In this document: positions 1-10,374 of the stretch, piece by piece
Layout of the letters: each line of letters begins with the position of its first letter
Position numbering within the stretch: position 1 is the stretch's first letter
From: a virus
Taxonomy: Duplodnaviria; Heunggongvirae; Uroviricota; Caudoviricetes
IMG/VR virus record: IMGVR_UViG_3300033153_006784
Location: 1 to 10,374 of that record
Reading direction: 5' to 3' (one strand)
DNA: 10,374 nt
Position numbers and translations under genes: made by a program
Notes under the pieces: generated by a model
Database searches by the model: none
The model's input: only the letters and a program-made list of their open reading frames with translations
Told to the model about the DNA's origin: nothing

Positions 1-216
1 CGTTTAACTACTTCTAGAGTTCGATGGATTTTAGGAATGAAAGTTAATAGTGTCGGTGCAATTGTCAATTCAATACCTTTAGATGATAATGATATAATTA
101 GAAGAGATGAACTATTAACTGATGGTAATCATCACTTTAGAAATCATTTCAAGTGGGGATTAGAGAGACTTCTGTCATTAGGTTATGAAGTGCCAGCAAA
201 AGAACTATTAATCTAA
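1..216 (+). CDS. 3' end of a hypothetical protein (71 aa visible, begins upstream of the window)
   Basis: Frame 1 is open from base 1 (RLTTSRVRWILGMKVNSVGAIVNSIPLDDNDIIRRDELLTDGNHHFRNHFKWGLERLLSLGYEVPAKELLI) to TAA at 214-216. The stop abuts the promoter repeat in the same way as other genes here. No family recognised. Confidence 0.75.
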   Translation, partial: RLTTSRVRWILGMKVNSVGAIVNSIPLDDNDIIRRDELLTDGNHHFRNHFKWGLERLLSLGYEVPAKELLI

Positions 217-236
217 CCACAACCTTTTTATACTCT
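214..236 (+). repeat. 23-bp perfect direct repeat, copy 1 (TAACCACAACCTTTTTATACTCT)
   Basis: Identical to 569-591. It begins with the stop codon of the upstream gene and contains the TATA box. Confidence 0.95.
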
Positions 237-256
237 GTTTTTATATAATCTTAACA
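217..256 (+). promoter_or_regulatory. Archaeal-type promoter P1 (BRE/TATA-like AACCTTTTTATA plus downstream TATAAT)
   Basis: TTTATA at 227, TATAAT at 244-249, ATG at 257 (30 nt after the TATA start, implying a leaderless transcript). The motif recurs nine times in the window. Confidence 0.75.
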
Positions 257-571
257 ATGGCAATACTTGAAAATATGATCAAAAATGCACAACCTGATCA
301 AATAACTGCTTTGGAGAATTTTATTGAAGATAATCCATGTTTTAATGATCTTCTTCCAATTATTAAATTACATCAAAAATTACCAGATATAACCCAAATC
401 CTTAGAAAACACTCTGTATATGTGAAAAGAGACAAAGGAAATACGTGGGGATATAGACACGTTAAAGTAAAAGGACTTGATCACAGATTAAATGAAATAA
501 CGGGAACTTTAATTTTCGTTCATAATAAACCATACGACAGAATTGAAGTTAGAGAAATACCAGAAGAATAA
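257..571 (+). CDS. Hypothetical protein, 104 aa
   Basis: ORF track. Own promoter at the typical distance, flanked by the 23-bp direct repeats. No family recognised. Confidence 0.8.
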   Translation: MAILENMIKNAQPDQITALENFIEDNPCFNDLLPIIKLHQKLPDITQILRKHSVYVKRDKGNTWGYRHVKVKGLDHRLNEITGTLIFVHNKPYDRIEVREIPEE

Positions 572-591
572 CCACAACCTTTTTATACTCT
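569..591 (+). repeat. 23-bp perfect direct repeat, copy 2
   Basis: TAACCACAACCTTTTTATACTCT, identical to 214-236. Looser similarity continues about 17 nt further (T-run, TATAAT, TCTT). Confidence 0.95.
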
Positions 592-615
592 ATTTTTTAT
601 AATATCTTGATTATA
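572..615 (+). promoter_or_regulatory. Archaeal-type promoter P2
   Basis: TTTATA at 582, TATAAT at 598-603, ATG at 616 (34 nt). Confidence 0.75.
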
Positions 616-744
616 ATGTTAGAATGGACACTATGGGTAAATATTAGCATTGCAGGTCTAGCATTTTGTACACTAATATTAACGGTAACTGTTTTAAAAT
701 TATGGGAAGATTATACTAAAAGAATAATGGAAGTGACAAATTGA
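616..744 (+). CDS. Small single-pass membrane protein, 42 aa (not in ORF track)
   Basis: Manual translation MLEWTLWVNISIAGLAFCTLILTVTVLKLWEDYTKRIMEVTN. It has a hydrophobic stretch of about 22 aa, sits at promoter distance from P2, and its TGA (742-744) overlaps the TTG start of the next gene (TTGA coupling). Confidence 0.75.
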   Translation: MLEWTLWVNISIAGLAFCTLILTVTVLKLWEDYTKRIMEVTN

Positions 745-1400
745 GTACATGGGAAAGTCAAAGAAGAGTATGGAAAGCATTCGACTTTGCATTAGAAAAA
801 CATATAAATCAAAAAGATGATAATGAAGAATCATATTTCCATGCACACTGTATGCACGTTGCTGATATCCTTAGAGGATTTATGAGAGAACGTGACGATA
901 ATCTACTTTGTGCCGGATACTTACACGATACAATCGAGGACACAGACACAACTTACGAGGAACTTGTCACACAATTCAATAAAGATATTGCCGACTTAGT
1001 AATGGAAGTCACTCATGAGGGAAAGAAAGACAACTATGGTTATTATTTTCCACGACTGAAAACAAAACGTGGAATACTCCTAAAATATGCTGATAGAATG
1101 TCTAATCTTTCAAGGATGGAAGCATGGAACCCTAGCAGACAAGAACAATATATCAGACGTTCTCGATTCTGGAAATACAAAGCTCCAAACCTTATTGATG
1201 CAACACTTAACCCTGAAGGTATAGCTGAAGTTATAACTGAATCAATTGTAAATCTAAAAGTTGATACGTCAGCACTTCCAACAGATTTACGAATGAGACT
1301 CAAAAGCGAAATAGTTAATTACTTGTACACCACTAAGCACATAGACAGGTACAGAACACAAGCGTACTTGGTTAAATTAATTGAGAGGTTGATAAAATGA
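741..1400 (+). CDS. HD-domain hydrolase of the Mesh1/SpoT small alarmone hydrolase type, with a C-terminal extension of about 70 aa
   Basis: Motifs AFDFALEKH-x2-Q...Y..HC..VA.IL, AGYLHDTIEDT, F...IADLV.EVT and LKYADRMSNL match the Rel/SpoT/Mesh1 hydrolase domain (HD, ED and distal D are present). Confidence 0.85.
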   Translation: MSTWESQRRVWKAFDFALEKHINQKDDNEESYFHAHCMHVADILRGFMRERDDNLLCAGYLHDTIEDTDTTYEELVTQFNKDIADLVMEVTHEGKKDNYGYYFPRLKTKRGILLKYADRMSNLSRMEAWNPSRQEQYIRRSRFWKYKAPNLIDATLNPEGIAEVITESIVNLKVDTSALPTDLRMRLKSEIVNYLYTTKHIDRYRTQAYLVKLIERLIK

Positions 1401-1645
1401 TGATAGACGAACACCGACTACTTTATCTTTGTGAAAGATGTGGTGGCGAATGTAATAAACCATGTGAAGCCTTCAAAAAACTTGATGAATTATTAACATC
1501 AACAGAAAATAGGAAAACAGCCATTGAAGAAGCTATAACAAAATTTAAATATGATCCATATTTCCTAATAGAATCAATGACTCGATTAGAAGGTAGAAAA
1601 CAATCATACGATAACTTATTAAAAATCTTATTGGAGATCGAATAA
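1397..1645 (+). CDS. Small Cys-rich, probably Zn-binding, hypothetical protein, 82 aa
   Basis: CERCGGECNKPC (C-x2-C-x3-C-x3-C). ATGA overlap with the upstream gene, and the stop directly abuts the next ATG. Confidence 0.75.
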   Translation: MMIDEHRLLYLCERCGGECNKPCEAFKKLDELLTSTENRKTAIEEAITKFKYDPYFLIESMTRLEGRKQSYDNLLKILLEIE

Positions 1646-2698
1646 ATGAAACATGATATGTTGCCCGAAACGGCACAAAAATACGTAGTCAAAAGATTAA
1701 CAGACTTGTTATCTACAACAACTTTAGAATTTGAGGTAGAACCCGCAGGTTCAATTGTACTTGGAACATACGTGGGTGAACCCGATATAGATGTTTTCAT
1801 CAAAACTAAAGCTAAAAATATTGAAGGAATATTTGAATTGGTAAAAACAGCTTACGATGGATATATAAAAATCGGTGCATTAAAAATCTTCGCAACAAGC
1901 GTTGACAACTATGATGTAGATATAGTAATTGTTGATGGTGATGATCCAAAGACACAAACACTATTACACACTTCATATTTCAAGGACAAACTTACAGATA
2001 TTCAGAAAACGGTAATAAAGAGATTAAAAAAACGCTTTAAAAGTGCAAATTGTTATGGTGCAGAAACAGGTGGAATTACGGGAATTGCAATTACAACAAT
2101 AGTGTCACAATATACTAGCACAACTACCATATCAGAGTTAGAAAACTGTGTTTACAGACATTTAAGAGGTGCGGAATTCGTAGAAGATCCAACATTAAAA
2201 GATCGTAACTTACTAGCGTCAATATTGCCTTTCAGATGGATACAGGTGAGAAATCCAAACACAGTAGGTATGGTAAGTTTCTTAGCAAATCACAACAGAG
2301 TTATATCTATTCCATACGATAAATCATACGGGAAAGATCGCCAATTTCAGAGAGTATATAAAGCTGTAAACAAATCGTTCAATCAAATAAAACAAGATTA
2401 CAGATGGTGGAATCCTAATATTAGATATGATATATATTTCGAAGGTGAAAAAATATACATTGGATATCAAATTGTACCCCATTTAGTATTAAAACCATTT
2501 TGGGAGACAATACCAGTAGATATACTTTCACAGAAAAATAAAGATATCATAATGTCTGTTGAAGGTGCTAATATAACCGGAAACGGACATTACATAAATT
2601 ACCCACGATATCCACAACACCCTAGAGTTGAAGAAGCATTCGAGCATCATTTGATACATGAAATAGAATCTCACTGTAATGCAAGAATTGTAAAATAA
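1646..2698 (+). CDS. cca: Archaeal class I CCA-adding enzyme-like (tRNA nucleotidyltransferase, Pol-beta fold), compact and divergent
   Basis: AGSIVLGTY...PDIDVFI (GS plus DxD), third carboxylate in DVDIV, T..H motif (TLLHTSY), LKKRFKSANCYGAETGGITG resembling the LK.FLK..G.YGAE...GFSG motif, and EDPTLKDRNLLA resembling DPVD..RNVAA of archaeal CCA enzymes. At 350 aa it is shorter than typical archaeal CCA enzymes (about 440 aa). Confidence 0.8.
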   Translation: MKHDMLPETAQKYVVKRLTDLLSTTTLEFEVEPAGSIVLGTYVGEPDIDVFIKTKAKNIEGIFELVKTAYDGYIKIGALKIFATSVDNYDVDIVIVDGDDPKTQTLLHTSYFKDKLTDIQKTVIKRLKKRFKSANCYGAETGGITGIAITTIVSQYTSTTTISELENCVYRHLRGAEFVEDPTLKDRNLLASILPFRWIQVRNPNTVGMVSFLANHNRVISIPYDKSYGKDRQFQRVYKAVNKSFNQIKQDYRWWNPNIRYDIYFEGEKIYIGYQIVPHLVLKPFWETIPVDILSQKNKDIIMSVEGANITGNGHYINYPRYPQHPRVEEAFEHHLIHEIESHCNARIVK

Positions 2699-2731
2699 CA
2701 ATCTTTTTATACTACTTCCCTTTTTTATAAT
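2699..2731 (+). promoter_or_regulatory. Archaeal-type promoter P3
   Basis: CAATCTTTTTATACT directly after the TAA stop. TTTATA at 2706, TATAAT at 2726-2731, ATG at 2732 (26 nt) or 2741 (35 nt). Confidence 0.7.
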
Positions 2732-3076
2732 ATGATCATTATGTTTAATAAAGATGATTCACCTTTCAGTACGCAAGACATCGCCAATTTTGTATCAATG
2801 ATGGGAATGATGAAAAAGATAACTCCAATAGCTAAAGAACTTGTGAATGAAATGATACCCGAAATTTTAAGTATCATTGAAGATACAGTCGTACCTATAT
2901 GTGAATTTAATGCTAAATACAGCAGAACTATGCTTGACAAACTTTTAGAGCAAGAATTTACAAGGTCAGAAGCCATTGCAATAATGACTAAAAGACAGGA
3001 TAGATCAGTTCCGCAAGTTGGAATTACACCTAAAAGCGGGTTCTTCGACAAGTTCTTCAATAGGAGTAATAAATAG
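2732..3076 (+). CDS. Hypothetical protein, 114 aa (start could be the in-frame ATG at 2741)
   Basis: ORF track, promoter P3 and helical amphipathic character. No family recognised. Confidence 0.75.
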   Translation: MIIMFNKDDSPFSTQDIANFVSMMGMMKKITPIAKELVNEMIPEILSIIEDTVVPICEFNAKYSRTMLDKLLEQEFTRSEAIAIMTKRQDRSVPQVGITPKSGFFDKFFNRSNK

Positions 3077-3085
3077 GGGAAAAAC

Positions 3086-3685
3086 ATGTTTGTATTAGAG
3101 ACAGCAATCCTTATTTTTATTTTTCTAGTCTTATCAGCAAAGTGGAACAAGTTGCTTCCGATTCCATTAATACTAACAGTTCTAGCTATGGGCTTTATGG
3201 TTGTTGAAATATACACTTATCAAGAAACAACAAGAGTTATACCTACATCTGGAATTGTAGCATTTAGCAATAATGAAAGTATAGCATTTACATTTTATCA
3301 AGATATTACAAGAACAAAAGTATTTGAACATGGTTATTGGGGAATGATAGAAGTTGGCGGAACCAGTCACATATCTGTATATTTAGCAAATGAAGGATCA
3401 GTTCCTTTTTGGGGTTATACGTCAGGAATTGATTGGAACCCTATACATGCCGGAAATTATATTCAAATTACGTCAGACTTTGGAGATGAACCAATATATC
3501 CACAAAGAATACGCAAAGTTACATTCCAATTAGACGTTTCCTCTAGTGTGGCAAACTCACAACCGTTGATAGAGGACTTTGGTTTTGATATATTTTTCAA
3601 CGCTAGAGACGAACCAATAGAATACTTTGAGTTAACAATTGATGTAGTTGGCGAAGGAACCGTAGATGTACAGGTTAATCCGTAA
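3086..3685 (+). CDS. Membrane-anchored or secreted beta-rich surface protein, 199 aa
   Basis: Purine-rich SD-like GGGGA upstream. The hydrophobic N-terminus has two segments, followed by a beta-strand pattern (SHISVYLANEGSVP...WNP..AGNYIQITSD...KVTFQLDVSS...FGFDIFF) that I recall from archaeal (Bathyarchaeia-like) hypothetical surface proteins; this is not verified. Confidence 0.75.
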   Translation: MFVLETAILIFIFLVLSAKWNKLLPIPLILTVLAMGFMVVEIYTYQETTRVIPTSGIVAFSNNESIAFTFYQDITRTKVFEHGYWGMIEVGGTSHISVYLANEGSVPFWGYTSGIDWNPIHAGNYIQITSDFGDEPIYPQRIRKVTFQLDVSSSVANSQPLIEDFGFDIFFNARDEPIEYFELTIDVVGEGTVDVQVNP

Positions 3686-3722
3686 CATTTATATAACACT
3701 TGCCCTCTTTTTATTACTACTA
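3686..3722 (+). promoter_or_regulatory. Archaeal-type promoter P4
   Basis: CATTTATATAAC directly after the TAA stop at 3683-3685. TTTATA at 3688, in-frame ATG at 3723 (35 nt). Confidence 0.6.
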
Positions 3723-4088
3723 ATGATAATTCCCGTATTAATAATAATTGGAATATTCATACTCCTACTCTATTTGGGGAAGATAGTTTATGACGCAACT
3801 TTGACCATTGCAACCGATAAGAACCTGTACGCCAGAGGCGAAGATACAGATATTACAGGTCATTTAGAAACGACTGGCGGAGTCCCGCTAGTTGGTAAGG
3901 CGGTATCAATCGTCGTTAATCCGCCCGTTGGAGATGCTTATGTTTTACCTATAGCAATCACCGATGCAAGTGGAAATTTTCAAGTAAGTCCGGCATGGGT
4001 CGTACCGTCCGGTGCTGAACTAGGTGTCTATACTCTATCGGCTGCAAGCGAAGGTCAAACTGCTAATGCAACCTTTACACCCATTTAG
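3723..4088 (+). CDS. Membrane-anchored Ig-like (S-layer/MG2-like beta-sandwich) protein, about 121 aa; start re-called from 3666 to 3723
   Basis: N-terminal hydrophobic helix MIIPVLIIIGIFILLLYLG, then TDKNLYARGE..ITG...G.P....VSIVV.PP.G...TDASGNF...VPSGAELGVYTLSA...A.ATF, a typical Ig-like fold pattern. The ATG at 3723 fits promoter P4 spacing. Confidence 0.75.
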   Translation: MIIPVLIIIGIFILLLYLGKIVYDATLTIATDKNLYARGEDTDITGHLETTGGVPLVGKAVSIVVNPPVGDAYVLPIAITDASGNFQVSPAWVVPSGAELGVYTLSAASEGQTANATFTPI

Positions 4089-4107
4089 AGTAGGAATTTG
4101 AGTATAG

Positions 4108-4150
4108 ATACCTTTATATAAGAGTCTTATAATATAGGTTAACGATCAGT
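4108..4150 (+). promoter_or_regulatory. Archaeal-type promoter P5
   Basis: ATACCTTTATATAAG with TTTATA at 4113, TATAAT at 4128-4133, ATG at 4151 (38 nt). Confidence 0.65.
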
Positions 4151-4429
4151 ATGGAAATAGTATTGCCTGAATTTGGCAAAAAAAGATCATCACTTGAAAT
4201 AAGTGCACAAATTTTAGAAAGTTGTATTAAACCCAACATTCCAACAAGAATTATGTATGCTAACAATCTTTCATGGGTATTGTCTAAAAGACATCTAAAG
4301 GAATTGTCTGATAAGGGTTACTTACAAATATTGAAAATCCCAGACAACAGAATTAAAGAAGCCTATATGACAAGTGATAAAGGTAAAGACTTAATACGAA
4401 AACTTAGAGATTTAGATGTAGATTTATAA
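4151..4429 (+). CDS. Winged helix-turn-helix transcriptional regulator, archaeal COG3432/HTH_45 type
   Basis: KKRSSLEISAQILE...PTRIMYANNLSW...RHLKELSDKGYL...YMTSDKGKDLI matches the RRS.LEI..IL...T.IMY.ANLS...YL..L..KGL...Y.IT.KG pattern. Confidence 0.85.
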   Translation: MEIVLPEFGKKRSSLEISAQILESCIKPNIPTRIMYANNLSWVLSKRHLKELSDKGYLQILKIPDNRIKEAYMTSDKGKDLIRKLRDLDVDL

Positions 4430-5034
4430 TGATACGCAGAAATAAACATCAAAGATATCTTGACGCTTTAATAGGTTGTAGAAGAATTGTCTCGATAACA
4501 CAATTTATGAATGTCGCTAATGTAGACTCTAAAAATTCAGACATTTTACTAAAAAGAGCGATAAGTAAAGGACATATTCAATTATATACTGCGAAATCCC
4601 AAAAAACTCCCGGTGGCGGAGCCAACTCATACAAATATAGACCTATGAGAAACTGGTACAAAACTACACAATTAGGAGAAGAATATATCATAAAAGCAAA
4701 AGAATTACATGATACTTTCAATGATCTTAATCTTGCACCAACATTAGGTTGGAACTTTATCAATAACAAAGTATTTGGACATCGATTACTTAGACCAGCC
4801 AGAAGAAAAAAATGGGTATTAGATGAAGATTCTCTCCCGAAAGAAATAATAGACGTACCATCTAATCAAATAGTAATAAAAAATGTAACAAGAAAAGATC
4901 AAGTTTTATCTAAAGCACAAGTTCCTATATTGGCTGACACAACAGGTTATCTGTGGGAAAAAGAACAACCTAAACATAACGAATACCAACCTTGGAAAAG
5001 AATGTACGAAAATAAGAACAACAAGGCCGAGTAG
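4429..5034 (+). CDS. Second, divergent winged-helix protein with a wing insertion and a C-terminal tail of about 100 aa
   Basis: RRNKHQRYLDAL...SITQFMNVANV...LLKRAISKGHI...WYKTTQLGEEYI parallels the upstream wHTH pattern. TAATG coupling. The last 10 nt overlap the tRNA. Confidence 0.65.
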   Translation: MIRRNKHQRYLDALIGCRRIVSITQFMNVANVDSKNSDILLKRAISKGHIQLYTAKSQKTPGGGANSYKYRPMRNWYKTTQLGEEYIIKAKELHDTFNDLNLAPTLGWNFINNKVFGHRLLRPARRKKWVLDEDSLPKEIIDVPSNQIVIKNVTRKDQVLSKAQVPILADTTGYLWEKEQPKHNEYQPWKRMYENKNNKAE

Positions 5035-5099
5035 CACACTGGAGATGCACCACGCTTCTAACGTGGACTAAGAGGGTTCGATTCCCTTCTCGGCTACCA
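5025..5099 (+). tRNA. tRNA-Arg(UCU): tRNA-Arg (anticodon UCU), intronless, CCA encoded
   Basis: Acceptor stem GGCCGAG/CTCGGCT, D-stem GCA/TGC with GG in the loop, anticodon stem CCACG/CGTGG with loop CTTCTAA (TCT at 5057-5059), T-arm GAGGG-TTCGATT-CCCTT, discriminator A5096 and CCA at 5097-5099. A20 after the D-loop GG is consistent with Arg identity. Confidence 0.92.
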
Positions 5100-5100
5100 T

Positions 5101-5139
5101 AACCTTTTTATAATACATTTCTATAATATTTTATTGTGA
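5101..5139 (+). promoter_or_regulatory. Archaeal-type promoter P6 (the T-run may also terminate the tRNA transcript)
   Basis: AACCTTTTTATAAT immediately after the tRNA CCA. TTTATA at 5107, TATAAT at 5122-5127, GTG at 5140 (33 nt). Confidence 0.7.
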
Positions 5140-5424
5140 GTGTTAGACATGGGTATAGAAGATAACATTAAGAACATTAAACCGCCCAGACTAACTTATT
5201 GTCCTTACATTAAAGGGCATAAGGATTTTGGCAATACGCAATGTTCTGAACAGATTACTAGAATGTTTTTTCAAAGACTATGTAATACAGGTGCTTATGA
5301 ACAATGTAAAATCTGTGCTAAGAAGCATAACGAGTTGAAAAATCCTATCGCATGGCTACAAAAAGAAGCAGTAGATAAAGAAAATAAAAGAAATCCAAAA
5401 GAAAAGGGTAGTAATGATTTATGA
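5140..5424 (+). CDS. Cys/His-rich, probably Zn-binding, hypothetical protein, 94 aa
   Basis: CPY...H...C...C...CKIC..H. First gene after P6, with an ATGA overlap into pncB. Confidence 0.75.
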   Translation: MLDMGIEDNIKNIKPPRLTYCPYIKGHKDFGNTQCSEQITRMFFQRLCNTGAYEQCKICAKKHNELKNPIAWLQKEAVDKENKRNPKEKGSNDL

Positions 5425-7136
5425 GAAAACCAAATATCGGGCTAATCAAAGAAGATGAACTTTTACTCTTTTCTGCGTATTACGCATATACGTCAGGTCG
5501 AGTGAACTTAGACAGTAGAATTGGAGAAATGGAAAAATTTCACGATGCAGTTTTTAAACTTGAAGATGAAGGTAAAAGTGCTATAGATGTACCTAGACCT
5601 GACAGATTAGATAGAGTAACACAAGTATACTTTTTCAGAAAAATTCCTAAACATCTTGGATCATACGTCATATTTGCAGGTTTAGAGCAAGTCATGGGTT
5701 GGATTCATACATTACAAGATAAAGCAGGATTGACAAAAGATACTTTAGAATTCTTACAATCTACTACAAATAATGACTTGGATGGTGCATTTTTAGATTA
5801 TCTTCTATTATTCTCAAATCAAAGTGAATCGGATCACAGACCACAGCCCGACTTTAACATCTGGGCAGTACCCGAAGGAACACCAGTTTTCCCAAATGAA
5901 CCCTGTCTCATGATAGAAGGCGATCCAATAGATATTCAAATAATCGAGGATATGCTTCTAGCCTGTTTAAACCATCAATCATTGATTGCTACCAAAACAT
6001 CCCGAATGAAATATCAGGTTGGTAAAAAGTCATTAGTAGACTTTGGTACTCGAAGGGCACACGGGTGGCTTGCGGCTTTACATGGAGCTAGAGCGAGCTA
6101 TATTGGCGGAACTGACGGAACATCACTTGTCCTTGCAGGATACAAATTTGGAATACCCTTCGTTGGTACGATGCCTCACGCTTACATCCAACTTAGACAA
6201 AAACCAGATATGACTTTCAATGACAGTGAAATTCAAGCCTTTGCCGAATACGCACAAACCTTCCCGCATAACAGTTTAGTATTAGTTGATACTTACAATT
6301 CAATTAATGGAATTATGAATTCAATTGAAATTGGAAAAAGATTAAAAAAACAAGGACACGAATTAAAAGGTATTAGACTCGATTCGGGAAATATGCTAGA
6401 ACTTAGTAAAACTGCAAGGACAATGTTAGATAATGCAGGTATGCACAGTTCAAAAATATATGTCAGTGATTCTTTAGACGAATTCTTAATACGGGATTTG
6501 TTATCCAGTGGAGCACCCGTTGATGGATTTGGTGTAGGTACACGACTTCAAACAGGAGCAAACTTCAATCCTTGGACAGAGAAGGGAGGAGCATCAGCAC
6601 TTGGAGGAGTGTTAAAACTCGTTGCAATTGGAGATAAACCTTCAATGAAATTTACAGATAACCCTGAAAAGAGAACTTTGCCGGGAAAACAGCAAATTTG
6701 GAGAATCTACGACAAGAGAAGTATGTACCAAGAGGATTACATTTCTACTTGGCAAGAAACTCTATCAGAGGCTAAACCTTTACTGATTCCAATCATGCTA
6801 CAAGGAAAATTAGTTTACGATTTCCCAACAACAAAAGAAATACGCACATATTCAATGAATGAATTAAAAAGAGTCAAGGCGGGATTTAAACGATTACCCA
6901 CAAATACGACAGTTGGTACGGGAACTTTGAAATATCCAGTACATCTAAGTCCAGAATTACAACAATTAAAAGCTATGTTAGAAATTAAATACGATATGGA
7001 ATTTGCAAAACCTAGAGAACAACCACTTACAGATGCAGAAATCAATGAACAGGTTGAAAAATATATGAGTATAAACCCAGATACCGAAGCACAATTAAAG
7101 TGGGAAATAAAACACAAGTGGGCGAATTACAAATGA
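5421..7136 (+). CDS. pncB: Nicotinate phosphoribosyltransferase (PncB/COG1488 family), divergent
   Basis: FFRKIP...FAGLEQV, AVPEGTPVFPNEP, LNHQSLIATKTSR, DFGTRRAHG, ARASYIGG, GIPFVGTMPHA (phospho-His motif), LVDTY, GIRLDSG, LDE, DGFGVGTRL, LGGV.KL and K.TLPGKQQIWR are all NAPRTase hallmarks. Confidence 0.92.
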   Translation: MRKPNIGLIKEDELLLFSAYYAYTSGRVNLDSRIGEMEKFHDAVFKLEDEGKSAIDVPRPDRLDRVTQVYFFRKIPKHLGSYVIFAGLEQVMGWIHTLQDKAGLTKDTLEFLQSTTNNDLDGAFLDYLLLFSNQSESDHRPQPDFNIWAVPEGTPVFPNEPCLMIEGDPIDIQIIEDMLLACLNHQSLIATKTSRMKYQVGKKSLVDFGTRRAHGWLAALHGARASYIGGTDGTSLVLAGYKFGIPFVGTMPHAYIQLRQKPDMTFNDSEIQAFAEYAQTFPHNSLVLVDTYNSINGIMNSIEIGKRLKKQGHELKGIRLDSGNMLELSKTARTMLDNAGMHSSKIYVSDSLDEFLIRDLLSSGAPVDGFGVGTRLQTGANFNPWTEKGGASALGGVLKLVAIGDKPSMKFTDNPEKRTLPGKQQIWRIYDKRSMYQEDYISTWQETLSEAKPLLIPIMLQGKLVYDFPTTKEIRTYSMNELKRVKAGFKRLPTNTTVGTGTLKYPVHLSPELQQLKAMLEIKYDMEFAKPREQPLTDAEINEQVEKYMSINPDTEAQLKWEIKHKWANYK

Positions 7137-7276
7137 TTTGGAAATGCCCTATGTGTGAATACGAAGCAGAATCGTTTTATTATTCAACTGGAAACTTAGC
7201 TAGAATTGAAGTATTAGAAGATGCGTTAAATCATCTTGCAGAACATATTATGAAACAAATAAGGAAACATGGTTAA
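7133..7276 (+). CDS. C2H2-type zinc-finger microprotein, 47 aa (not in ORF track)
   Basis: MIWKCPMCEYEAESFYYSTGNLARIEVLEDALNHLAEHIMKQIRKHG contains CxxC...HxxxH. ATGA overlap with the pncB stop. Confidence 0.75.
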   Translation: MIWKCPMCEYEAESFYYSTGNLARIEVLEDALNHLAEHIMKQIRKHG

Positions 7277-7445
7277 AATGAAAACTAGATTTAATAAACT
7301 TGAAGTAAATCTTATTGACGCAGACGATGTAATAATAGCAAGAATGGTTACAACCGATGTGGGACAAAAAAGATTAACAATTCTATTCAATGATTTGGCT
7401 AGACAAATTGTTGATGCATCTGATAAAGAATGGAAAAAGGTGTAA
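7269..7445 (+). CDS. Hypothetical microprotein, 58 aa (alternative start at 7278, 55 aa; not in ORF track)
   Basis: MVKMKTRFNKLEVNLIDADDVIIARMVTTDVGQKRLTILFNDLARQIVDASDKEWKKV. It fills the gap in the coupled + strand chain, with AAGGA upstream of 7269. Confidence 0.65.
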   Translation: MVKMKTRFNKLEVNLIDADDVIIARMVTTDVGQKRLTILFNDLARQIVDASDKEWKKV

Positions 7446-7448
7446 AAA

Positions 7449-7565
7449 ATGAAGTGTGAAATAAAGCCAGAATTAGAATGCATTAATAACAAAGATTGTG
7501 TTAATTGCAAAACTTACGCTCAATCATGGATAGAAATGTTAAAAAATTGGAACTATAATAAGTGA
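7449..7565 (+). CDS. Four-cysteine microprotein, 38 aa (not in ORF track)
   Basis: MKCEIKPELECINNKDCVNCKTYAQSWIEMLKNWNYNK (C-x7-C-x5-C-x2-C). Its TGA overlaps the next GTG start (GTGA). Confidence 0.65.
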   Translation: MKCEIKPELECINNKDCVNCKTYAQSWIEMLKNWNYNK

Positions 7566-7819
7566 TTAAAATGAGTGGAATATCTATATTATATGTCGTT
7601 AAATGGCAATTTGATTATGAGGACTCTACTATCATATATGCAGGATTTAATGTAAAAAATGCACAAGAATACGCTGAAAAACGTGTTCCTAGAGATTACA
7701 TAAATTGTATAATTCATGAATTACATGCAAAATTAAATGTTGGATGGGTTGAAAATAATCCAAGTTATGTTTGGAACTATAACAATTTTAATAAAAAGTG
7801 GGAAAGGAGAACACACTAA
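7562..7819 (+). CDS. Hypothetical virus-type small protein, 85 aa
   Basis: ORF track, coupled at both ends (GTGA and TAATG). Confidence 0.7.
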   Translation: MIKMSGISILYVVKWQFDYEDSTIIYAGFNVKNAQEYAEKRVPRDYINCIIHELHAKLNVGWVENNPSYVWNYNNFNKKWERRTH

Positions 7820-8028
7820 TGGCTGAAAAAGATATAACAAGATGGGGAAATCCCGCAAAACATGCGTCTGATGATGGAAAGGCATATCAAGACGTATTTA
7901 AAGACATGACCGAATGGTTAGAAAAATTCCAATGTCCAGATTCATTTATTCGAAATACTGCAACCAGTATGACGAATAATGTCTTTGACATCTTGGAAAA
8001 ACATGAAATATGGAAGTATGACACATGA
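7819..8028 (+). CDS. Hypothetical protein, 69 aa (start re-called from 7798 to 7819)
   Basis: AGGAG SD-like sequence shortly upstream and a TAATG overlap with the previous stop. Translation begins MAEKDITRWGNP. Confidence 0.7.
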   Translation: MAEKDITRWGNPAKHASDDGKAYQDVFKDMTEWLEKFQCPDSFIRNTATSMTNNVFDILEKHEIWKYDT

Positions 8029-8279
8029 AATCAAATAATAATATTGTAAAACTGATCATAATTTTAATTGGTGTAATTCTTTTCTGTGGCTACATGTTAG
8101 ATGTACCTGCATCCGAACCAAATGTATATATTCCGGCACAACCAACCGAAACACAAGCACTTATAGAAATTCTTGAATCACTTAGTACATTAATATACGG
8201 CAGTATCGCAGCATCCCTGATCGCAGCGTTGGCAGCAATCGTGTGTTTAATGCAAGTAAACCTGATAGCGTCTCGATAA
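8025..8279 (+). CDS. Small membrane protein with two hydrophobic segments, 84 aa
   Basis: LIIILIGVILFCGYML and LIYGSIAASLIAALAAIVCLM. ATGA overlap. Last gene of the P6 operon. Confidence 0.75.
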   Translation: MKSNNNIVKLIIILIGVILFCGYMLDVPASEPNVYIPAQPTETQALIEILESLSTLIYGSIAASLIAALAAIVCLMQVNLIASR

Positions 8280-8280
8280 C

Positions 8281-8316
8281 GAAATCTTTATATATAACCT
8301 ATATTACATTATGTAT
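8281..8316 (+). promoter_or_regulatory. Archaeal-type promoter P7 with no downstream ORF; drives ncRNA units 1 and 2
   Basis: GAAATCTTTATATATAAC with TTTATA at 8287 and TACATT at 8305. The position +30 is G8317, the first base of unit 1. Confidence 0.65.
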
Positions 8317-8371
8317 GGGCATAGAGAGTTCCTCTAAAAAAATATATGAAAAAAAAATATACTCTCCGCTC
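8317..8371 (+). ncRNA. Structured RNA unit 1 (55 nt)
   Basis: GGGC(8317-20)/GCTC(8368-71), loop ATA/C, GAGAGT(8324-29)/ACTCTC(8361-66), with an interior of TCCTCTA and an A-rich stretch. Confidence 0.7.
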
Positions 8372-8379
8372 CTTAAAAT

Positions 8380-8436
8380 TGACATAGGAAGTTCCTCTAC
8401 AAAACTTGTCTGTATAACAAAAATTACTTCCCGTCA
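8380..8436 (+). ncRNA. Structured RNA unit 2 (57 nt)
   Basis: TGAC(8380-83)/GTCA(8433-36), loop ATA/C, GGAAGT(8387-92)/ACTTCC(8426-31), with an interior of TCCTCTA and a small TTGT/ACAA hairpin. Confidence 0.7.
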
Positions 8437-8440
8437 CCAA

Positions 8441-8474
8441 AACCTTTTTATATAAGTTCTACATACAATGTTCT
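8441..8474 (+). promoter_or_regulatory. Archaeal-type promoter P8; drives ncRNA unit 3
   Basis: AACCTTTTTATATAAG with TTTATA at 8447 and TACAAT at 8464-8469. The position about +29 is the start of unit 3. Confidence 0.7.
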
Positions 8475-8556
8475 TGACATAAAGAGTTCCTCTAAAACCA
8501 AGCCTCTCAGCATGCCTTCGGGTTGTGCAGAGGCTCCTTAAAAATACTCTTCGTCA
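8475..8556 (+). ncRNA. Structured RNA unit 3 (82 nt) with an internal cUUCGg hairpin
   Basis: TGAC(8475-78)/GTCA(8553-56), loop ATA/C, AAGAGT(8482-87)/ACTCTT(8546-51). The interior has TCCTCTA plus a hairpin at 8501-8535 (AGCCTCT/AGAGGCT closing, C-TTCG-G tetraloop). It is followed by TTATTTT. Confidence 0.75.
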
Positions 8557-8574
8557 TTATTTTAAGAAATTACC

Positions 8575-8617
8575 GAAACGTTTTTATATAAGTTACCTAC
8601 AATATATTCTGATACAG
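8575..8617 (+). promoter_or_regulatory. Archaeal-type promoter P9
   Basis: GAAACG (BRE-like) plus TTTTTATATAAG, with TTTATA at 8583, TACAAT at 8598-8603 and ATG at 8618 (35 nt). Confidence 0.75.
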
Positions 8618-10374
8618 ATGAGATCAACAATTAGATTATTTAGAGCAGTTCCTATAATGACAAAAGGAACAGCAAAAAAAGAACAACCCATGAATGTGCT
8701 ATTAAGAACAATGGCAAAAGGGTATTTATTCGCACCAGAAGTAGTTGCGTCTTATAATGATTTAGACAGATTAGCAAACATGGTCGAAAATGAAGTCGGA
8801 TTAGATCCAATTGAATTAAATGCTTCATTTCACAAATCTTGGGCTAAAGTTACAAACGCATCTATGAGACAGTTAGTGTTAGAACAACTTGTTCATTATA
8901 TGACTACTTACGGATATGCAAGTATAGGAATTTACAGCGACGCTACCGTATTTATTCCTAGAGAAAAATTATTAATTCCAGCGATAGACCTTGACGGATT
9001 CACATTTACGATTATCAAGGGATATACGTCAGAAGAATTAAAAGAAAAGTTGCTAAAACTCCTAGAAAGTGGAATCGCACTAAAAGAAGAAACTGCAAGA
9101 GACGTAATGGAAGTTGCGACTTATGTAGGAATCGATGAAAAGGATATGGATAGAGTCAAAAACAAAGAAGTCCGAATTATGATGTTCGACTACTTAGGGC
9201 TAGTTCCAAGAAATCCAACCGAATTCCTGAGATATTGCGTTTACAAGGCAACTGAAAGTACACTGTTAATCAAGAATATGGGTACATTCACGAAAATCCA
9301 AGAAAGAGACAACTATGACGTTGCGGGTAAATTCGCAATGTATGACAAAGTTGTTGGATTCGAAAAATTAGCTGAAATCTTCTACAGATACAAACCGCTA
9401 TTCTTGGCATTTAGAACAAATGACCAAATGAGACGATACACTAACCAAATCAGAAAATTAGCAAAAACACATCACAAGCCTATGAGAAAGGACTATCTAA
9501 ACGAAGTTACAGCAATGATCAAAAGCGGGACAATAAAAAACACACCACTACAAGAAGCATTATCCAGAGCGAACATATTCCGAAAAATCAGATTAGCTTA
9601 CACATTGAACTTTAGATTGAAAAATCCAGTTTCAACAATATACCGAATCAGAAACGGTAAAAGCTATGTTACAGAAATGAAAGAATCTACACCAAGAGAG
9701 AAAATGTGGTATAGAGAAGTATTGAACACTGTGAAAAATGCGATAGCATCTGACCTAGCACACTTAAAGGGAAAGAGAATATACATCCCAGAACACATGA
9801 ATTACGCACTTCCAGCAACAGAAAAGCAATTCGTTGGAAATCTTCCATCAGGGACAAGTATTTCAGTACCGGACAACATGGTTTTCGGTATCCATTGGGA
9901 AAATCAAGGTAGAAACGTAATTGACATAGACTTATCACTACAAAATCAAAACGTTGGAAAAATCGGTTGGGATAGTTCATATAGAACACAAAAAAGAGAT
10001 ATTCTGTTCTCAGGTGACTTAGTAACTGCTCCGCTACCAAACGGTGCGACAGAACTGTTTTATGTTAAGGATAGTGCAGAAGGCTTTTACCTATTAAACG
10101 CAAACTATTACAATTATGATGCAACAATACCAGTTCCGATAAAAATCATCGTTGCGAGTGATGAAGGTGGAAAGCGATTCGGTGGAAATAGTAATAGAAC
10201 ATTATACATGGTAGATCCAAACAAAGTCTATGGAACGGTAAACTTTGAAATCAAGGATAAACAACACATGCTAGGACTGTTAGGTATTACTCCAGAAGGA
10301 GCAAAATTCTACTTCATTGACGCATCAGCAGGTGGCGGAATTACAAGCCGAGTCAACAAGAGAACTGAACAAAG
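8618..10374 (+). CDS. Large protein (more than 585 aa, runs off the window) with a helical N-terminal region and a TerD-like C-terminal region
   Basis: Manual translation gives an uninterrupted frame from ATG 8618 (MRSTIRLFRAVPIM...NASFHKSWAKV...EQLVHYMTTYG...RANIFRKIRLAY...YRIRNGKSY...ALPATEKQFVGNLPSG...) to the window end. FGIHW...IDIDLS...FSGDLVTAP..GATE (about 9884-10055) resembles the TerD GLGW...DLDAS...HSGD motif. It is missing from the ORF track because no stop occurs in the window. Confidence 0.9.
   Translation, partial: MRSTIRLFRAVPIMTKGTAKKEQPMNVLLRTMAKGYLFAPEVVASYNDLDRLANMVENEVGLDPIELNASFHKSWAKVTNASMRQLVLEQLVHYMTTYGYASIGIYSDATVFIPREKLLIPAIDLDGFTFTIIKGYTSEELKEKLLKLLESGIALKEETARDVMEVATYVGIDEKDMDRVKNKEVRIMMFDYLGLVPRNPTEFLRYCVYKATESTLLIKNMGTFTKIQERDNYDVAGKFAMYDKVVGFEKLAEIFYRYKPLFLAFRTNDQMRRYTNQIRKLAKTHHKPMRKDYLNEVTAMIKSGTIKNTPLQEALSRANIFRKIRLAYTLNFRLKNPVSTIYRIRNGKSYVTEMKESTPREKMWYREVLNTVKNAIASDLAHLKGKRIYIPEHMNYALPATEKQFVGNLPSGTSISVPDNMVFGIHWENQGRNVIDIDLSLQNQNVGKIGWDSSYRTQKRDILFSGDLVTAPLPNGATELFYVKDSAEGFYLLNANYYNYDATIPVPIKIIVASDEGGKRFGGNSNRTLYMVDPNKVYGTVNFEIKDKQHMLGLLGITPEGAKFYFIDASAGGGITSRVNKRTEQ

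Follow-up and report, generated by a model that had tools for sequence, protein, structure and literature searches.

CCA-type enzymes carried by viruses and other mobile elements have been described in the halovirus HGTV-1 (PMC8651126), in Borgs (10.1101/2024.11.05.622173), and, in their class II form, in jumbo phages (PMC7824862). The CCA enzyme was filed under RNA repair by Iyer et al., and the HD-alarmone hydrolase under counter-nucleotide defense (PMC7824862). The small alarmone hydrolases (SAHs) MESH1 and ATfaRel strip the 3'-pyrophosphate placed by toxic small alarmone synthetases (toxSAS) from tRNA CCA ends and restore aminoacylation (bioRxiv 10.1101/2021.04.30.441581), and the same preprint cites Mesh1 as an NADPH phosphatase. 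The locus analyzed here carries genes of both kinds: a gene for a SpoT/Mesh1-type SAH-like HD protein and a gene for a shortened homolog of the class I CCA-adding enzymes look like parts of one predicted transcription unit. It is located in a stretch of 10,374 bases (hereafter the window), consisting of bases 1-10,374 of the 84,117-base IMG/VR record IMGVR_UViG_3300033153_006784, the completeness of which was estimated at 57% by CheckV. The source is a large, uncultured tailed virus, probably of archaea.

Organization of the Predicted Transcription Unit

The unit consists of four open reading frames (ORFs) located between two copies of a promoter-like motif, and a tRNA gene is present further downstream.

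579..602, + strand: promoter-like TATA motif CTTTTTATA..TTTATAA at the head of the unit (putative promoter)
607..744, + strand: small hydrophobic ORF of 45 amino acids (aa), first gene of the unit, with a TTG start at 607 (ATG at 617); a weak gene call based on the ORF list and the sequence
741..1400, + strand: SpoT/Mesh1-type SAH-like HD protein of 219 aa with a TTG start, composed of an HD core (1-145) and a C-terminal extension (146-219)
1397..1645, + strand: orphan four-Cys protein of 82 aa with a CxxCx3Cx3C cluster and a helical tail
1646..2698, + strand: class I CCA-adding-enzyme homolog of 350 aa with head, neck, and body, the tail being mostly absent
2703..2730, + strand: second copy of the promoter-like motif, which opens the next unit and so marks the end of the 607-2698 unit
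5025..5099, + strand: tRNA-Arg(UCU) with an encoded CCA (3' end ACCA), detected by ARAGORN and Rfam; it may serve as a substrate and belongs to another transcription unit

The HD gene starts at a TTG that shares bases with the stop of the 45-aa ORF (TTGA), and it ends in a TGA that runs into the start codon (ATG) of the 82-aa ORF (ATGA). The TAA of the 82-aa ORF (1643-1645) immediately precedes the ATG of the transferase ORF. The composite motif CTTTTTATA..TTTATAA was matched only twice in the window (579-602 and 2703-2730), where zero matches are expected by chance, and since it brackets the four ORFs, 607-2698 looks like a single transcription unit. The tRNA-Arg(UCU) gene lies 2.33 kb past position 2698, two transcription units downstream. 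The gene order, the overlaps, and the downstream tRNA given in an earlier sequence-only reading of the window were therefore confirmed, apart from its description of the small linking protein as a Zn protein, a property that can only be surmised from the four Cys residues. The long ORFs of the 84-kb record are nearly all on the + strand, and since genes are closely spaced throughout this compact same-strand genome, gene packing says little by itself about function.

The 82-aa protein matched no Pfam, PHROG, or NCBIfam family at a significant E value, retrieved only itself from 5.8 billion clusters, and has no homolog in the 67 transferase loci. Its four Cys residues (CxxCx3Cx3C) may bind zinc. 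The complex prediction made with the transferase, the Cys protein, and the HD protein gave a score of 0.00 ("no answer"), which weighs neither way on binding.

The Transferase

Sequence profile and structural model clearly point to the 350-aa product as a shortened homolog of the class I CCA-adding enzyme of Archaeoglobus fulgidus (AfCCA), in agreement with the assignment made in the sequence-only reading. A single-sequence search of the PDB gave no match, and a word-based homolog search retrieved only a 99% copy of the transferase. With an exhaustive phmmer search of 1.8 billion representatives, 68 relatives were obtained, most of them about 350 aa long, the canonical archaeal CCA enzymes of 410-450 aa being at the weak end. 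The profile of 43 family members matched AfCCA (1r89) with an E value of 2.6e-22 (profile 4-352, chain 15-397), and no poly(A) polymerase (PAP) was found in the same profile search of the PDB up to an E value of 1. The transferase itself scored below the curated cut-offs of TIGR03671 for archaeal CCA enzymes (E value 6e-10; 38.4 bits vs. 281.3) and of the Pfam neck model PF09249 (10.3 bits vs. 27).

The structural comparisons were based on an alignment-based AlphaFold2 (AF2) model with a mean predicted local distance difference test (pLDDT) score of 94.1 and a predicted TM-score (pTM) of 0.87, the single-sequence AF2 model being unusable (pLDDT 34). The top 13 Foldseek matches were all AfCCA entries (E value 2e-15, TM 0.69), and eukaryotic PAPs came next. 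With VIA-align, 315-323 residues were superposed, residues 2-350 of the model lying on residues 18-413 of AfCCA (Z 19.2).

The aligned pairs (window/AfCCA) include G35/G46, S36/S47, D47/E59, D49/D61, D92/D110, T105/T130, H108/H133, K128/K152, Y137/Y161, and R187/R224. We take these AfCCA positions to be the catalytic, triphosphate-binding, and base-selecting (C/A) residues of the published structures. The residues G35, S36, D49, D92, T105, H108, K128, Y137, D181, and R187 are invariant in the 43-member family, D47 is at least 90% conserved, and the DPxxxxRN motif is invariant in the short family. The protein has a head, a neck, and a body in 350 aa, and thus departs from the four-domain architecture of 410-450 aa; the neck insertion of the canonical enzymes is lacking, and GFSGY reads GITGI.

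Distribution of the Short Family and tRNA Context

In a quick maximum-likelihood tree, the short family (48 rows) stands apart from the canonical enzymes with full support, and the window transferase belongs to a long-branched clade along with the relatives L007-L010. The carriers of the short family include one other IMG/VR virus and 66 metagenome contigs. Among 185,579 species genomes, which were scanned with a narrower family alignment, it was detected in only two, both on contigs of archaeal metagenome-assembled genomes (Thermoproteota and Methanosarcinales). No match to the window transferase was obtained with tblastn in 50,697 GenBank phage and archaeal-virus records, in which a canonical class I enzyme was unmatched as well.

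In the clade to which the window belongs, all three members with enough flanking sequence are located among tRNA genes: 22 tRNAs in 6 kb in L010, 17 in 11.8 kb in L008, and a single one 0.9 kb upstream in L007. These tRNA arrays are the best contextual evidence that the transferase acts on tRNA. Besides the 22 tRNAs and the gene of its short class I enzyme, the virus-like contig L010 has a gene for an eIF-1A/aIF1A homolog at 2460-2771 (PF01176, 3e-19). The neighbors of the transferase are otherwise variable small ORFs, and in a distant clade no conserved partner was found, the neighbors being mostly unannotated small ORFs, DNA methylases, and an ARPP-1 protein.

The 84-kb record of the virus contains 21 tRNA genes according to ARAGORN, three of which have introns in the anticodon loop. 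A CCA is encoded in 14-15 of these genes, and it is incomplete in tRNA-Asn, tRNA-Arg(TCG), tRNA-Asp, and the intron-bearing tRNA-Met (record positions 24534-24606, 26458-26528, 38094-38168, and 40854-41041, respectively). Four or five tRNA genes of the virus are without a full encoded CCA, and the others would need repair only.

The HD Hydrolase

On sequence evidence, the HD protein is a RelA/SpoT-type (SpoT/Mesh1) SAH-like protein, and this part of the sequence-only reading holds. It matched Pfam PF13328 (HD_4) with an E value of 2.4e-14, above the cut-off (53.8 vs. 27.2 bits), phrog_990 with 2.5e-26, and the N-terminal part of TIGR00691 with 3e-19. Its nearest solved relatives are headed by Drosophila Mesh1 (3nqw, 2.4e-12) and include RelSeq, human MESH1, the (p)ppApp hydrolase Aph1, and PaSAH. 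The HD, ED, and ADR..N motifs (H62-D63, E66-D67, D118, and N122) are invariant over 33 aligned homologs. The protein is of the hydrolase-only kind, since no RelA_SpoT synthetase was matched in its 219 aa or in the 84-kb record.

At least 827 homologs were found, mostly 140-150 aa long and 60-70% identical. The HD core (residues 1-145) defines a strongly conserved viral subfamily with the motif HEGKKDxxGYYFPRLKT, and residues 146-219 (74 aa) were found only in the window protein. Genes of this subfamily are very frequent among uncultured viruses, being present on at least 474 IMG/VR contigs, and a single weak match was obtained for the HD protein in the GenBank phage and archaeal-virus records. 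Several homologs have C-terminal Cys-rich tails, and the viral HD_4 core also occurs fused to Nudix (P0011, 292 aa) and to a DNA methylase domain (P0075, 330 aa).

PF13328 was unmatched in all four archaeal control genomes, in line with the fact that classical (p)ppGpp signaling is mostly absent from archaea. Taken together, these two points make a non-alarmone substrate more attractive.

Proximity of HD and CCA-Type Genes in Other Viruses

The loci of the short transferase were scanned over ±10 kb with a hidden Markov model built from 120 HD homologs. An HD gene was present within this distance in only one other virus (L006, identical to L023), 3.8 kb downstream of a transferase of a distant clade, with at least seven ORFs in between. 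For the reverse search, the Pfam class II CCA head PF01743 was sought in the entire viral records behind the 79 best HD-bearing loci (of at least 474). Both an HD gene and a CCA-type enzyme were present in nine of these 79 records, eight with PF01743 and one (G001) with the short class I enzyme, and these nine correspond to seven lineages:

L115 (G034): the HD and CCA genes overlap; next come tRNAs and a Ro60 TROVE/vWA gene
L141, L143, and L146 (one lineage): 0.63 kb between the HD and CCA genes; no tRNA within ±10 kb
L134 (G053): 2.8 kb; an island with an Rnl1 ligase and RlaP
G001 (L006): 3.8 kb; short class I enzyme
G038: 17 kb
G037: 85 kb
G042: at least 94 kb

The two genes are thus at most 4 kb apart in four of the seven lineages, vs. 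0.67 expected (P 0.0014 without the window and 0.0002 with it). The domain assignments were confirmed by Pfam, and most of the CCA-type enzymes in these records belong to class II. The neighborhood of HD and CCA-type genes therefore recurs across unrelated viruses, with enzymes of both classes, which suggests a functional link. The module proposed in the sequence-only reading is in this respect partly borne out, as a recurrent neighborhood and not as an obligatory machine for healing and then rebuilding.

Two of these loci show features of their own. In the 79-kb virus with terminal repeats IMGVR_UViG_3300017963_000032 (L115:9298-12938), a 240-aa class II CCA-like gene overlaps HD_4, which is 57% identical to the window HD protein, and the Ro60 homolog consists of TROVE (2.4e-38) and vWA_Ro60. 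The RNA-repair island of a 216-kb phage record (L134:9989-15755) brings together HD_4, an Rnl1-type RNA ligase, an RlaP nucleotidyltransferase, and a class II CCA enzyme that includes an HD domain. Since this CCA enzyme has a separate HD_4 neighbor in spite of the HD domain that it retains, HD_4 cannot be regarded simply as the HD domain that a split enzyme has lost.

Host, Transcription Signals, and Neighboring Genes

The family B DNA polymerase, a winged-helix gene of the HTH_45 type, the TATA-like boxes, and the class I type of the transferase all point to an archaeal host. Single CYTTTTTATA boxes are located about 25-35 nt ahead of most gene starts, in nearly every intergenic gap of the window:

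223-232, 4111-4120, 5103-5112, 8443-8452, and 8579-8588: further CYTTTTTATA boxes

The boxes at 2703-2730 and 4111 stand between the 607-2698 unit and tRNA-Arg. Such boxes also occur directly 3' of tRNA genes elsewhere in the same genome. They are probably a combined signal of this virus, consisting of an oligo-T terminator and a TATA promoter.

No RtcB, Rnl2-type ligase, class II CCA head, or RelA_SpoT synthetase was detected in the 84-kb record, and no kinase-phosphatase or RNA ligase was found there; since the record is only about 57% complete, these absences are weak. PADLOC assigned no defense-system family to the HD protein, the Cys protein, the transferase, or the 616-aa ORF downstream.

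Elsewhere in the window, positions 3666-4088 encode a protein of 140 aa that has a membrane helix at its N terminus; its match to an MG2 (alpha-2-macroglobulin-like) domain is below the cut-off (4.6e-6). Positions 5421-7136 encode a 571-aa homolog of nicotinate phosphoribosyltransferase (NAPRTase), an enzyme of NAD salvage, with N- and C-terminal extensions (NF006695, 3e-120), which scores under the NF006695 cut-off and over that of TIGR01513.

Possible Roles of the Two Enzymes

We lean toward the explanation that the unit encodes two enzymes serving the same substrate pool, namely the 3' ends of tRNAs, in parallel, and not a machine with two fixed steps. Substrates and activities are inferred, as would be any cooperation between the two: the transferase would complete or rebuild the CCA on viral and host tRNAs, and the HD protein would free tRNA 3' ends blocked by a pyrophosphate or phosphate or else destroy (pp)pNpp-type nucleotides. 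Since the CCA is still intact once an SAH-type enzyme has removed the pyrophosphate, parallel services are the most economical arrangement.

Several observations weigh against this explanation. Of the 47 loci in which the sequence extends more than 1 kb upstream of the short transferase, none has an HD gene there. HD_4 is widespread in viruses as a gene standing by itself, occurring also in contexts without any transferase, and its proximity to tRNA genes is modest (seven observed vs. 3.6 expected within 1 kb, P 0.04); the proximity of HD and CCA-type genes could also result from a shared preference for islands of translation and RNA-repair genes. As regards the transferase, the other 60-odd family loci yielded a single doubtful tRNA call, most members having no tRNA close by, and the CCA is encoded in all the tRNAs of the relatives in the window clade, so that these tRNAs do not depend on a CCA being added de novo. 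The transferase lacks the last 40-60 residues of the canonical enzymes, AfCCA being matched only up to about residue 413, and the beta-turn motif of the head, which reads AEHPY or a close variant in canonical sequences, is replaced by an invariant GxLxIW with a deletion. The tail domain of AfCCA holds the tRNA elbow. Since both the tail, for the most part, and the AEHPY turn are absent, the specificity of the transferase may differ from that of AfCCA. Finally, the structural comparison gave a tie with a eukaryotic PAP (PAP-gamma, Z 19.4 over 282 residues), although such a tie is to be expected, since the class I architecture is shared. The fact that the CCA is encoded in most of the virus's own tRNAs and in all those of the relatives fits repair better than obligatory maturation. 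The E. coli CCA enzyme is non-essential and serves repair.

Some of these points would be explained if the transferase were not a CCA-adder and attached another tail (poly(A)-like, a tag of the CCACCA type, or a single nucleotide) to tRNAs, viral mRNAs, or viral small RNAs. The tie with PAP-gamma (19.4 vs. 19.2 for AfCCA), the GxLxIW replacement, the missing tail, the scores under the curated CCA cut-offs, and the location of most family members away from tRNA genes are in line with this idea, which we nevertheless find unlikely, given that the sequence profile detects the CCA enzyme and no PAP, that the counterpart of R224, the base-selecting Arg of the CCA type, and the DPxxxxRN motif are invariant, and that the nearest clade is embedded in tRNA arrays. 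Whether the two genes are merely incidental neighbors, the HD protein acting on alarmone-like (pp)pNpp signals or NADP(H) in a takeover of metabolism or in counter-signaling, the transferase on tRNA maturation, and their adjacency reflecting the packing of auxiliary genes, is a possibility to be taken somewhat more seriously, although we doubt it. HD_4 is abundant as a stand-alone gene, and in the sampled contexts its neighbors are unrelated: one is a virus with MCM and thermosome genes and another a phage with an SU10 portal, neither of which has a transferase close by. The best solved match is Mesh1, cited as an NADPH phosphatase in the preprint mentioned above; one homolog is fused to Nudix, the virus carries a NAPRTase, and the phage HD-alarmone hydrolases were read as a counter-nucleotide defense by Iyer et al. 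(2021; PMC7824862). These points have to be set against the HD_4 and CCA-type genes being closer than chance in other viruses (P 0.0014), and against the failure of tblastn, which has a low sensitivity, to detect homologs of NAPRTase, nicotinamidase, NadE, or NadM around the HD gene (79 loci) or around the transferase (67 loci); the lack of PF13328 matches in the archaeal control genomes also makes a classical alarmone substrate less obvious.

A strict version of the sequence-only reading would be a split machine for healing and repair, in which the HD protein removes the 3'-phosphate, cyclic phosphate, or pyrophosphate left by a host defense, the transferase then rebuilds the CCA, and the Cys protein may act as a bridge, the pair replacing the HD domain that class I enzymes lack. 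The unblocking of tRNA 3' ends has a precedent in solved SAH relatives, which strip tRNA-3'-pyrophosphate (10.1101/2021.04.30.441581), and would be a plausible activity here. Co-transcription, the overlapping or abutting stops and starts, and the recurrent proximity of HD and CCA-type genes in viruses can all be cited in favor of such a machine, as can the class II CCA enzyme of E. coli, in which an HD phosphatase/phosphodiesterase is fused to the transferase. It has become quite improbable, however, because the adjacency is not conserved among the relatives of the transferase (0 of 47), which tells against it on the reading's own terms, because the Cys protein is an orphan, and because the class II CCA enzyme of L134 has its own HD domain in addition to a separate HD_4. 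Pyrophosphate removal leaves the CCA intact, so that the steps need not be sequential and rebuilding would be needless. The incomplete 84-kb record, moreover, yielded no RNA ligase, RtcB, or toxSAS-type synthetase, and RelA/SpoT-type HD domains are not known to act as 2',3'-cyclic phosphodiesterases.

Beyond the parallel-services explanation, it can be conjectured that the HD protein and the tail-less class I transferase, perhaps along with the Cys protein, rescue tRNA 3' ends from host immunity in an archaeal virus, by stripping pyrophosphate or phosphate blocks and rebuilding a clipped or mis-extended CCA. We consider this conjecture tentative and rather unlikely. If it were true, archaea would use defenses targeting tRNA 3' ends, of the toxSAS, MenT, or 3'-tRNase kind, and the viruses of both prokaryotic domains would have reached the same counter-measure with non-orthologous CCA enzymes. 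Viral tRNAs and tRNA-repair enzymes are increasingly read as a counter to tRNA-targeting immunity, and almost all the evidence comes from bacteriophages. The presence of a SpoT/Mesh1-type hydrolase in a virus of hosts generally devoid of (p)ppGpp suggests a substrate other than an alarmone, for instance NADPH or the blocked ends of tRNAs. A compact, tail-poor class I enzyme, being easily expressed, can also be used to probe how much of the archaeal enzyme is needed for measuring and finishing the CCA.

Comparison with Known Systems

The closest described enzyme is the class I CCA enzyme of A. fulgidus (1R89, 1SZ1, 3OVA, and 4X4N; TIGR03671), with which the transferase shares the pol-beta head (GS, DxD, and a third Asp), the neck (K..Y-G-A-E and DP....RN), and the RRM-like body. 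It differs in length (350 aa vs. 437 aa in AfCCA) and in that the short family is found on contigs of viruses and mobile elements, whereas AfCCA is encoded by a cellular housekeeping gene. No published description of such a short class I CCA enzyme was found in the part of the literature covered. HGTV-1, the Borgs, and the jumbo phages provide similar cases of a tRNA-rich element with its own CCA-type enzyme, read as serving tRNA maturation or repair; the window transferase forms a separate short clade, and the phage enzymes belong to class II.

The HD protein resembles the known SAHs (Mesh1/MESH1, ATfaRel, PaSAH, Aph1, and the "HD-alarmone PDEase" of jumbo phages) in its HD_4 fold, its catalytic motifs, its single-domain, hydrolase-only composition, and its occurrence in viruses, but differs from them in belonging to a distinct viral subfamily (about 145 aa), in its 74-aa extension, and in its probable archaeal host. 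As a combination of a phosphohydrolase with a 3'-end transferase for tRNA ends, the pair can be compared with the class II CCA enzyme of E. coli and with the RNA-repair islands of phages (T4 Pnkp/Rnl1; Rnl1-RlaP-CCA). The HD domain of E. coli is, however, of the generic PF01966 type and fused to the transferase, whereas in the window the HD protein is of the RelA/SpoT type and encoded by a separate gene, and the transferase belongs to class I. Three features appear to be new: a tail-poor family of short class I enzymes that is restricted to archaeal virus-like contigs, the tRNA-array context of this family, and, in a virus that probably infects archaea, the combination of such an enzyme with a hydrolase of the SAH type.

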